From IMG/VR virus record IMGVR_UViG_647533159_000005: a stretch of DNA of 11,837 nt; one strand, 5' to 3'. Within the stretch, counting starts at the first letter, position 1, and each line of letters begins with the position of its first letter. Positions 6,001-9,000 of the stretch are shown piece after piece. The stretch is from a virus (taxonomy: Duplodnaviria; Heunggongvirae; Uroviricota; Caudoviricetes). The position numbers were made by a program.

Positions 6001-9000
6001 ACGGGGATAACATCCCGTTTTAATTCACAACAGCGAACAGAGTAATTACAGGGGAAGGCATGACAACGCTGACCATTAACCGAAAACCGAAAGGCATTTA
6101 CGGCACGCAGTCAGAAACGACGCAGGCGGCACAGCAGCAGGATAAAACCACATCGGCGCATAAAGTGATACCCGGCAATCAGAACGCACAGCAGAAGCCC
6201 ACAGGGGCGACACCGTGGCGGCATATGACCAAACGCCAGCGTAAAAACCGCAGACGCGTTAACCGCCTTATTGAATTGTGGCCTGACTTATTCAACAGGG
6301 AAGCACCGAAGCCGCTGAAGGTGGGGATATTTGACGACCTGATGCGGGATATCGCCGCCAGGGGGCTGACATTCGGGCCGGGGGCATTACGTGCGACGCT
6401 GGCATCCTATGCGCAGTCTCCGCGCTATTACCGCGCCCTGATAGCTGGTGGCGCACGTTACGACCTGAAAGGCCAGCCATGTGGGGAAGTGACACCACAG
6501 GAACAGCAGGAGGCAGAAACGCGGCTGGCAGCACTGAATGAAAAGCGCAAACGTCAGGCGACAAAGGAGAGGACAGGCGCATGATTCGTGACAGCAAAGC
6601 GGAAGAACTGGAGACTAAAGGCCTGTACCGGAGAGCGGCGGCGCGGTGGGCTGAGGTCATGCAGCTGGTGAACACCGATAAGGAGCGCGAACAGGTGGCA
6701 AAGCGTCGTGCGGAATGCATCCGCAAGGCAGCACGCCCACCCGTTATGGCGGATAACTTCGGGGCGCTGAAAGAGGCTGTAAACCGCACTCATGCGGTGA
6801 TGGGGATGGAAGACGCGGGTAAATCCGTCTGGCGGAACTACCCGAAGCAGCCTGGCAGCAACCAGTGATGCCGGATATTATCCTGAAAAATGATCATCAC
6901 TCCCGTGGGCGGATAACATAAAATCCTGCATATGCGCACATACACAGACGAAGCCGGAACAATCCGGCTTTTTTTACGGGTCCTTCCGGAGGGGGGGGCC
7001 TTACCGTGGGGCGACGGACGCGCGGGAATCGCCAAATTTTCGCATTTTTATCGGTCATCACCACCAGCGCAATTTATTGATAATGAAGGTTAAAAAAAAT
7101 TCCCGGTGTCGAAAACGCCTGTTTTTTGTTCATCACTGAATCATGCGCATCATGATACCAAGATACCCGGTATTGCTGCGTGATAACCCACAGGACTGGT
7201 GGCGATGCGTTATGGTCCGTGCGTTGCCATCTTCCTGGCCTGATGGCATTATCCGGCATGAACGAGCGGTTATTCTCCGTACTCTTAATCGTTGTTCATG
7301 GTTATTTGCTTTGTGGTAGCTAACATTTCCTGATGGTTATTATCCTTCTGCCCCGTAATCACGGGGATTTTTTTACCCGCGTTCTGCCGTTCTCCCCTGT
7401 GCTGTTGGTAGCGTCACGATGTGTCACGGCATGTCACCATCACGTCACGCTGATTGCGAAAGCCAGGATTAACCAGTACCGGAACGGGTAGCCCGATGTA
7501 TTGTTACCGTCCTGCCGGCTGGTGGAGTAATTGATAACGGTTATCATCAACGGGAGGGGCAGATCAAATCCCTGTGGCCCTGGATGTCAGGGACCGCCTG
7601 CCAACCCTTCTTCGCATCGCCGCAGGTTCGAAAACTTTTTTTTGGGAAGGTGCGCACAGAGTTGATAGATAAAACCTATCAGAGAAAATCACGTCAAACC
7701 CGCGTCATTGCTGGCATCGTTAAAAAAACTCACTCCACCAGCAGACTAAAAAACCGCGATTTTTCCGGTTTTATGGGCTGAAAAGGGGCTCCCTAAAAAA
7801 CATCTCTCACACTGCCGGACGGAGACGGAGATTTTTACGGGTCCTTTCCGGAGGTCTGAATACCGGGGGTACGAATACGCGCAATTCTTAACTGTTTATG
7901 AAAATTTTTAGGGGAAAAGCGTGTCGGTACTTCTCGCGCATAACTGTTTGTTTTCATTAAAATCGACAATCGGAAACATACGACACCATAACACCGGAAA
8001 ATCCCGTTTTTCTGGCGTTTCATGTCGGAGGTGGTTTTTGATGAGGATTTGATAGATGAATGTTAACAAAAAGAGACTGGCGGAGATTTTCGGTGTTGAT
8101 CCGCGCACAATTGAACGCTGGCAGACGCAGGGCCTTCCTCATGCATCTGGTGGCGGAAAAGGCGTGGAAGTGACTTTCGACTCTGCACAGGTGATCGAAT
8201 GGTATGCCCAGAGGGAGAAGGACATCGAAAACGAAAAACTCCGCAGGGAGCTTGATGATTTACGTGCTGCTGGTGAATCAGATTTACAGCCAGGCACAAC
8301 AGAGTACGAACGCTACCGTCTCACCAAAGCACAGGCGGACGGGCAGGAACTGAAGAACGCCAGAGAGACAGGGGAAGTTATAGATACTGAGTTCGCACTC
8401 TGTGCGCTTCGTGGTCTGGCGCGCCAGATTTCTTCGATCATGGATAGTTTACCGCTCACAATGCAAAGGCAGTTCCCCGCGATGACTCCGGCAATGATCG
8501 AGGGCCTGAGGAAAGAAACAGCACGCGCCTGTAATGCGTGCGCTAAAACTGCCGATAATCTACCCCGCATTCTGGAAGACTACCTGATGGAAACAACCGG
8601 AAACGTGCCGGAGAAATTACGGCAACAGAAAGGTGAGCGACAACCGCGCAATTATTGAACAAAACAGAGAAAGGATCTGATAACGTCATTTTTGGCCCAA
8701 AATGACCACTGTCAGATCCTTTCTTTTTTTGATGATTTTACGATTAAACAATGAGTTACAGAGAAGAAGAACGGATCTGACTTTTCCCGAAAAATTTTCA
8801 TAAACAGTTAAGAATTGCGCGTACCCGTCCCCCCGGCGCTTAAGGTTCCGGAAAGGACCCGCAGGAAATAGCTACCGTAAGGCGTAATTAAATATCCGGG
8901 GATGTGCCACGGAACAGCCTGCTGAATACAGGTCAGCGTGATGACGGTAAATAAAGAGAATATACGAGAAGGAAAAATATTAGTTTAAAAACTAATGTCC

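Follow-up and report, generated by a model that had tools for sequence, protein, structure and literature searches.

Why do some phage-inducible chromosomal islands (PICIs) carry two different cos sites? This is posed as an open question in the Rpp paper (PMC6739421), and it is raised again by the 11,837-nt stretch of viral DNA analysed here (IMG/VR record IMGVR_UViG_647533159_000005), the full length of which we call the window. The window is a cos-type PICI of Escherichia coli, including its packaging region. Within it four cos-like elements, termed A, B, C and D, form two nested inverted pairs around the island's own small terminase gene, terS. They probably constitute a packaging module with several specificities, in which the inverted orientation lets cos sites that share a core coexist, with inversion of the DNA as a consequence. 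The locus is a variant of the known cos-PICI packaging system and not a new category.

The inner pair of cos elements

The inner pair is formed by cos B (7836-8055, plus strand), located directly upstream of terS, and cos C (8660-8862, minus strand), which abuts the terS stop codon. The 14-mer CGGGTCCTTTCCGG occurs exactly at 7838-7851 (+) and 8848-8861 (-), while the chance expectation for matches with up to two mismatches is 0.10. The initial annotation had listed three copies of this cosQ-like motif; its sites in A, B and C are all genuine, with the coordinates of the inverted copy shifted by one position. B and C together make an inverted repeat of 116 nt with 76% identity, including a longest exact stretch of 34 nt (7876-7909 / 8823-8790), which bears out the near-identical block described previously. 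The similarity runs beyond the short cosQ motif, through cosN and I2.

The elements were set against the corresponding regions of lambda, phage 21, PhiR5_1 and the SerU-LTIIb prophage (alignments A1 and A5), and B and C correspond to authentic cos regions subsite by subsite. Each has a cosQ (7838-7851 in B, 8861-8848 in C), a 12-mer flanked by CG on either side (7866-7877, GGGGTACGAATA in B; 8833-8822, GGGGGACGGGTA in C), the shared core block given above, an I2 stretch CTGTTTATGAAAATTTTT, and the boxes R3, R2 and R1. The cosN-like 12-mers had already been picked out, and are displaced by one base once they are aligned to lambda by their CG flanks.

On this one lambda-like cosQ/cosN/I2 core the two elements carry different types of cosB, both with the order R3-I1-R2-R1 and with R2 inverted. 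In B it is of the phage-21 type and matched to the island's Nu1-type TerS, with R3 at 7920-7935, R2 near 7977-7989 and R1 at 8020-8029. The R3 of B, CGTGTCGGTACTTCTC, is identical to the R3 of phage 21 annotated in M81255, and the layout of B agrees with the R3-I1-R2-R1 of that entry, in which the R and integration host factor (IHF) sites are annotated. The R boxes of C are of the GATC type (R3 8781-8763, R2 8723-8711, R1 8681-8669), are laid out as the R3/R2/R1 of lambda, and match those of the SerU-LTIIb prophage (75% identity) and Gifsy-1. A difference in cosB had been noted before, with B taken to be GAAAC-type; the difference stands, and B is of the phage-21 type instead. The close apposition of the cosB of C and the end of terS, also noted earlier, is real, the R1 box ending ~10 nt from the stop codon at 8656-8658. 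R2 and R1 of C constitute a 34-nt inverted repeat which, read on the plus strand, is predicted to form a hairpin (ΔG -33.4 kcal/mol, z -7.5) followed by U7, 10 nt past the terS stop. The hairpin and its T-run are likely to be the terminator of terS.

The small terminase gene

The gene between B and C, terS (8056-8658, plus strand), encodes a protein of 200 amino acids of the Nu1 family (Pfam Phage_Nu1, E 6e-68). Its residues 1-98 align to lambda TerS in PDB 6hn7_B (E 2e-39), and it is 72% identical to Nu1 of PhiR5_1 and 62% identical to gp1 of phage 21 over a region that includes the C-terminal segment. When compared with nine other island alleles the ratio of nonsynonymous to synonymous substitution rates (dN/dS) is 0.08-0.22. 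The gene is intact and under purifying selection. A scan of the window for promoters gave results no better than those for shuffled sequences, and therefore permits no statement on terS expression.

The protein ends in an extra tail of ~19 amino acids. The C-terminal half and part of this tail (NVPEKL.Q.KGE) are common to the TerS of an O145 island, the N-terminal DNA-binding domain of which is different. This suggests an island-type TerS C-terminus that may be joined with swappable DNA-binding domains. A remnant of a large-terminase gene (gene A of lambda) was sought behind terS and none was found, the extra tail being partly shared with another island's TerS. The window contains no rpp gene (Rpp proteins have 139-154 amino acids and pair with the TerS of the helper), and the RppA of the well-studied island EcCICFT073 is only 21% identical to the island TerS.

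The outer pair of cos elements

The outer elements belong to a different cos family from that of B and C. Cos A (6970-7137, plus strand) is homologous over ~170 nt to the prophage cos that precedes DUF1441, and also to cosQ and cosN of lambda (alignment A3). It comprises a cosQ-like sequence CGGGTCCTTCCGG, one T short, at 6977-6989, a run of eight G nucleotides at 6991-6998, a cosN-like core at 7008-7025 that contains the aligned 12-mer (7009-7020), an AT-rich I2-like stretch, and a diverged cosB-like tail. Cos D (10450-10288, minus strand) is an inverted copy of the same family that had escaped the initial annotation, so that the elements number four and not three. Its subsites are a degenerate cosQ-like sequence (CGGGTCCTCCTGG, 10446-10434), a cosN-like core (10416-10399) with the aligned 12-mer at 10415-10404, and a cosB-like tail. 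The 18-nt cores of A and D are exactly the same (7008-7025 = 10416-10399). Their 12-mer is GGGCGACGGACG, and its left half GGGCGA has one change from the GGGCGG of lambda. The cosQ sequence GGGTCCT is found in all four elements, at a distance from the 12-mer that in each is within 3 nt of that in lambda, and the CG flanks of the 12-mer are kept in B, C and D, while A has TG at the left nick flank (7007-7008).

A and D have no R boxes, and resemble instead the prophage cos upstream of DUF1441. Over ~170 nt both align to the interval that separates the lysis genes from the DUF1441 gene in an O157:H7 lambdoid prophage (L011; related loci are cited by such numbers), in which the gene order is lysis genes, cos, DUF1441, TerL and portal, and they align likewise to the cos plus DUF1441 of other islands. 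A had been taken for a direct copy of B, and should now be placed in the family of prophage cos sites that precede DUF1441 and terL. B is directly upstream of a small terminase gene; D holds the equivalent position only in relatives, where the gene is DUF1441, and A and C do not. In relatives the tail of D runs into the DUF1441 gene, which is intact in L001 and L003, and the gene that follows D in islands is 63-68% identical to that of the O157:H7 prophage. D formerly stood before an island DUF1441 gene, and this gene has been deleted in the window.

DUF1441 itself does no more than occupy the small-terminase position, and has no detectable relationship to Nu1. Comparison with Nu1 using hhalign gave only an insignificant match of 21 columns in a helix-turn-helix. 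The possibility that A and D are cos sites of the Rpp type, with DUF1441 as the Rpp, was considered and rejected. Neither the single sequence of DUF1441 nor a profile of it has similarity to RppC in the PDB; EcCICFT073 has a true rppA that encodes a different protein, and DUF1441 stands in the small-terminase position of the O157 prophage. A scan of IMG/VR with the exact A/D core returned only island-sized contigs, and the best phage matches to the island cores are 70-75% identical.

Among related loci the G-run between cosQ and cosN of A is not constant in length: the window has G8 and L020, which is otherwise 99.9% identical, has G9, L013 and L017 have G6, L024 has G5, and L003 has GGGGTGG. 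The range of G5-G9 fits the earlier proposal of a variable tract; the differences could be due to real slippage or to homopolymer sequencing error. A further arrangement of this cos family occurs in the island of strain 7CC (L012, 3478-3549 and 6004-6168), where two A/D-type cos sites in direct orientation flank a gene for a ClpP-protease/major-capsid fusion.

Inversion isomers and their exchange points

Twenty marker segments were mapped on related loci, all oriented by the first of the two PerC-family genes (perC1), giving 28 composite loci including the window. Three of the mapped units are X, the spacer 7063-7835; T, comprising cos B, terS and cos C; and Y, the cargo arm. They are found in four arrangements. 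State I (X+ T+ Y-) is that of the window, and is adopted by eight loci in all (with L007, L016, L020, L025, L030, L034 and L041). State II (Y+ T- X-) is found in 15 loci (L001, L003, L008, L013-L015, L017-L019, L021-L023, L033, L036 and L039), state III (Y+ T+ X-) in two (L002 and L010) and state IV (X+ T- Y-) in three (L009, L024 and L032). Two independent inversions, the first between A and D and the second between B and C, give rise to these four states. An identical TerS protein is encoded by islands in states I, II and IV, with terS genes that are at most one synonymous base apart. Fitch parsimony on neighbour-joining trees, built from either the T segment or the backbone, gives minima of 4-5 events for the outer pair and 5 for the inner.

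The exchange points can be located. At the inner pair the sequence on the cosQ side always moves with the outer flank and the R boxes always move with terS, so that the exchange is bracketed to a block of ~45 bp consisting of the 12-mer and 33 nt of the shared stretch. At the outer pair it is confined to a stretch of no more than 36 bp with cosN at its centre. Some copies are mosaics: in the left copy of L007 the perC1 flank is followed by a D-type core from cosQ to I2 and then by an A-type tail, and in the right copies of L018-L022 the D-side flank is joined to the A-type half of cosQ. Homologous recombination with gene conversion fits this pattern; a single fixed site, or simple cutting and religation at cosN, does not. 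Nor do the islands have the attributes of a site-specific inversion system, since there is no dedicated gene (no invertase is annotated in 13 related RefSeq loci) and the crossover points vary and leave conversion mosaics. The two types of cosB on a shared core, and the four orientation states, lend strong support to the initial suggestion that packaging modules differing in specificity have undergone recombination or inversion with one another.

Comparison with known packaging systems

The closest known system is EcCICFT073, likewise an E. coli cos-type PICI, in which a lambda-like cosQ/cosN precedes a packaging-specificity gene and a second cos is present (Fillol-Salom 2018, 2019; Murialdo & Feiss 2022). 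In its sequence (L029) cos1 is at 35524-35602 (+), rppA at 35660-36094 (144 amino acids) and cos2 at 36315-36265 (-). Its two cos sites are thus inverted around rppA, in the same layout as B, terS and C of the window. Both of these sites were shown to function, and deletion of cos2 raised transfer of the island by lambda (PMC6092414). Searches of PMC6092414 for 'inverted', and of PMC9026076 for 'inverted', 'inversion' and 'cos2', brought up neither an inverted cos layout nor natural inversion isomers of EcCICFT073. The islands differ in the specificity gene, which is rppA there and a full Nu1-type TerS here, and in cosB, which is a complete R3-I1-R2-R1 of the phage-21 type in the window, whereas R boxes are absent from Rpp islands (PMC9026076). 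The window also adds the second, outer inverted pair of another cos family. In relatives of EcCICFT073 (ATCC 25922 and O157:H7 strains, with flanks as L029 35090-36700) terS replaces rppA between the same flanks, which suggests that cassettes may be exchanged at the cos sites of such islands.

Simpler islands (L035, L037, L038, L040 and L042) contain only the T module of cos, terS and inverted cos, always co-oriented with the island genes. The module is found at ~70-95% identity across several island lineages and integration sites. The presence of an inverted copy in these islands and in EcCICFT073 shows that it is no accident of one strain.

Lambda, phage 21 and PhiR5_1 share with the window the order cosQ, 12-nt cohesive-end sequence with CG flanks, I2, R3, I1, R2, R1 and then terS, with TerS proteins that are 52-72% identical. 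The island terS precedes an inverted cos of another cosB specificity and not terL, the B/C 12-mer has a left half that differs from the lambda consensus, and the island TerS has its extra tail. Prophage cos sites of the O157:H7 type, to which A and D are related as described above, have DUF1441 in the small-terminase position; the island differs in having two inverted copies of the cos, and no DUF1441 gene in the window. Segments bounded by inverted repeats and found in alternative orientations are familiar from the G segment of Mu, the C segment of P1, the P segment of e14 and the R64 shufflon, where inversion changes which gene faces a given direction. The islands differ from these in lacking a dedicated invertase, in having cos sites as the repeats, and in their scattered exchange points.

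A proposed packaging mechanism

A translocating lambda terminase recognizes cos in one orientation only. We propose that induction of a helper phage would lead to replication of the island, and that the large terminase of the helper could then be recruited by three routes. The island TerS would bring it to B, a helper TerS with the specificity of Gifsy-1/SerU would bring it to C, and DUF1441-type helpers would provide the route to A/D, which together would allow more kinds of helper to be used. Sites with a common core and different cosB could both serve for initiation only if inverted, because in direct orientation each would terminate packaging begun at the other. Termination of the lambda type depends on cosQ-cosN-I2 and not on cosB (PMC4669245). 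Direct sites would give packaged products without the terS cassette and with one to three mismatches in the overhangs; in cos it is cosQ, the left half of cosN and the CG flanks that are conserved, and mismatched cohesive ends lower yield or viability (PMC4669245). Inverted cores would in addition be substrates for homologous recombination and gene conversion, giving repeated flips of the terS cassette and of the larger segment. Inversion would then be a by-product of keeping inverted repeats, which terminase breaks at cosN may enhance since the conversion tracts are centred on cosN.

The proposed answer to the opening question would accordingly be that the second site is always inverted, and shares a termination-competent core while differing in initiation specificity. 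Packaging of the island could in this way be initiated by terminases of more than one specificity, and neither site would cut the products of the other. The cos cores would act as exchange points bounding a replaceable cassette (rppA or terS) and invertible segments, which could explain how satellites shuffle helper specificity. Such rules would be relevant to designing delivery vehicles that resemble cosmids or are based on PICIs, and to predicting the prophages able to mobilize islands with fimbrial or bacteriocin cargo.

We also considered whether a helper might trigger the inversion, such that terminase cutting at cosN and repair of the break against the inverted copy would flip the terS cassette or the whole segment, to give a phase-variable choice of helper without an invertase. 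If so, the flip would switch which specificity gene (terS or DUF1441) and which cosB is expressed or usable. We regard this extension as unlikely.

Alternative explanations

A number of observations weigh against a packaging module of several specificities. The activity of A, B, C and D as cos sites is predicted from homology. The left halves of the inner 12-mers are GGGGTA in B and GGGGGA in C, compared with GGGCGG in lambda (three changes), and the nick positions are placed by alignment only. The exact B/C core was found in no phage in the collections, and its 13 matches in IMG/VR are all contigs 4-14 kb long. A and B are direct repeats in state I, which can be reconciled with the orientation argument only if the terminases of the two cos families are different. 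The number of independent inversions could be inflated by exchange of modules between islands, and terS has been lost in several relatives, by deletion in L003, L033 and L039 and by frameshift in L009. The window also looks like a partly decayed copy. The TG in cos A replaces the CG conserved in D and most related copies, so that A may be a nicking substrate of low quality; the DUF1441 gene is deleted but for its end; and the DUF927 primase/helicase gene (4054-5363) is divided into two open reading frames (ORFs) with an internal deletion of ~800 bp compared with the intact 707-codon gene of L020. With its primase gene split, this copy of the island may not manage autonomous replication.

The losses of terS, the deletion of DUF1441 and the disrupted primase gene are what might be expected if the extra cos copies and terS were inert relics of degraded prophages or fused islands, and the inversions neutral scars, and the better transfer of EcCICFT073 by lambda on deletion of cos2 points the same way. 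We nevertheless think this rather unlikely. It conflicts with the low dN/dS of terS across the nine alleles, with retention of the cos-terS-inverted cos module in several lineages and integration sites, with subsites kept in register (cosQ, CG flanks, I2 and R boxes), and with the function of both EcCICFT073 cos sites. Decoys or relics, as the initial annotation had put it, are not favoured, in view of the purifying selection on terS and of the movement of the module with the island among at least three integration sites. A programmed switch resembling the Mu G segment or a shufflon, toggling whether terS or DUF1441 faces island transcription and so choosing the helper, would account for the existence and recurrence of all four isomers. 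It would also agree with the presence of DUF1441 in 13/17 loci where its arm is co-oriented with the island operon, as opposed to 1/11 flipped loci (Fisher p = 0.0013 by locus), and with the antisense orientation of 4/4 terS losses. These associations are not significant by lineage for DUF1441 (p = 0.28) or for terS loss (p = 0.27), and so a link of gene loss to orientation is not relied upon here. The annotated relatives have no invertase gene, and the variable crossovers and conversion mosaics are typical of general recombination. Moreover, a terminator-like stem-loop with a T-run (6953-6976, seen by eye) ends perC1 directly 5' of A, which makes read-through expression uncertain. A dedicated switch is thus quite unlikely.

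Inversion might alternatively be effected by terminase itself, by cutting at both inverted cosN sites and rejoining of the cohesive ends in the flipped orientation without homologous recombination. The cosN cores of A and D are identical, a double cut would leave a segment with two identical ends that could religate either way, and the outer crossovers fall within the block centred on cosN. The 12-mers of B and C, however, have 1-3 differences, although flips of the inner segment are as frequent as those of the outer, and the mosaic exchange points (left copy of L007, right copies of L018-L022) are at cosQ and at the end of I2 rather than at cosN. The mosaics disfavour cutting and rejoining as the mechanism, which we judge very improbable. 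An assembly artefact as the origin of the inverted copy is refuted. The whole 11,837 bp matches two independent assemblies (OU349838.1 and GG749171.1) at 100% identity and a third at 99.9%, >30 loci have the same inverted arrangement, and the repeats are shorter than a typical short read. A multi-specificity packaging module, with inversion by homologous recombination as its consequence, thus remains the reading that we prefer.

The arms and their cargo

The segments between the inner and outer elements are of different character. Arm X (7138-7835) is a conserved spacer without a convincing ORF, 84-97% identical to other loci. Its position and orientation follow the outer inversion, and in all the isomers it remains joined to one inner cos, on its outer side. 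The idea that it is a decayed arm Y or DUF1441 was rejected, as no similarity was found. A cluster of GTCAC(G) repeats is present within it at 7412-7452, and these could be protein-binding sites.

Arm Y (8863-10287) is a variable cargo arm. In the window it contains a gene for a fimbrial subunit of the K88/F4 family (9188-9988, plus strand; Pfam Fimbrial_K88, E 3e-52) and a remnant of DUF1441 on the minus strand, its last 10 codons (10146-10117; tblastn, residues 160-169 at 100%). Elsewhere the arm has an intact DUF1441 gene, or pyocin and immunity cargo. The corresponding position is occupied in L007 by genes for an S-type pyocin, its immunity protein and PAAR, and in L024 by a Mu-like insertion.

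The island and its genes

The island is integrated at tRNA-Pro, with tRNA-Pro/yejM on one side and yejO on the other. It has the characteristics of an EcCICFT073-like PICI, a class of small islands (10-20 kb) at a specific att site with int, alpA, a primase/replication module and unidirectional genes. The gene order is int (1-1242), an AlpA-family regulator, DUF4222, the DUF927 primase, SSB, ProQ, PerC, the packaging region, two small ORFs and a second PerC. No structural gene, terL or complete virion gene is present among the island genes of the window, in which no Rfam families were found. The family of islands with this packaging region also occurs at yifB and near thiM, that is at three or more integration sites, with more than one integrase. 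Because it recurs at these places with differing integrases, the whole stretch can be regarded as a single mobile unit. The T module, too, is found at no fewer than three places in the chromosome and in company with more than one integrase. The two PerC-family genes (6581-6868 and 11529-11837, both on the plus strand) are diverged from each other and bracket the packaging region, and the second is kept in most relatives.

Chi sites

The Chi sequence GCTGGTGG occurs 16 times in the 11.8 kb, compared with 0.35 expected from shuffled sequences. Eight sites are on the plus strand (1163, 2222, 2254, 5630, 6444, 7518, 10615 and 11066) and eight on the minus strand (1555, 3953, 4775, 5656, 7061, 7735, 10659 and 10794). 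The density is 0.6-2.1 per kb in related islands including EcCICFT073 and 0-0.27 per kb in the chromosomal flanks, and there is no Chi in a 49-kb lambdoid prophage of CFT073. A literature search found no paper on Chi enrichment in PICIs. One site (7061-7068, minus strand) is inside the cosB-like tail of cos A, and those at 7518 (+) and 7735 (-) are inside arm X. Several Chi sites flank the cos elements, and are oriented for RecBCD entering at a cut cosN.

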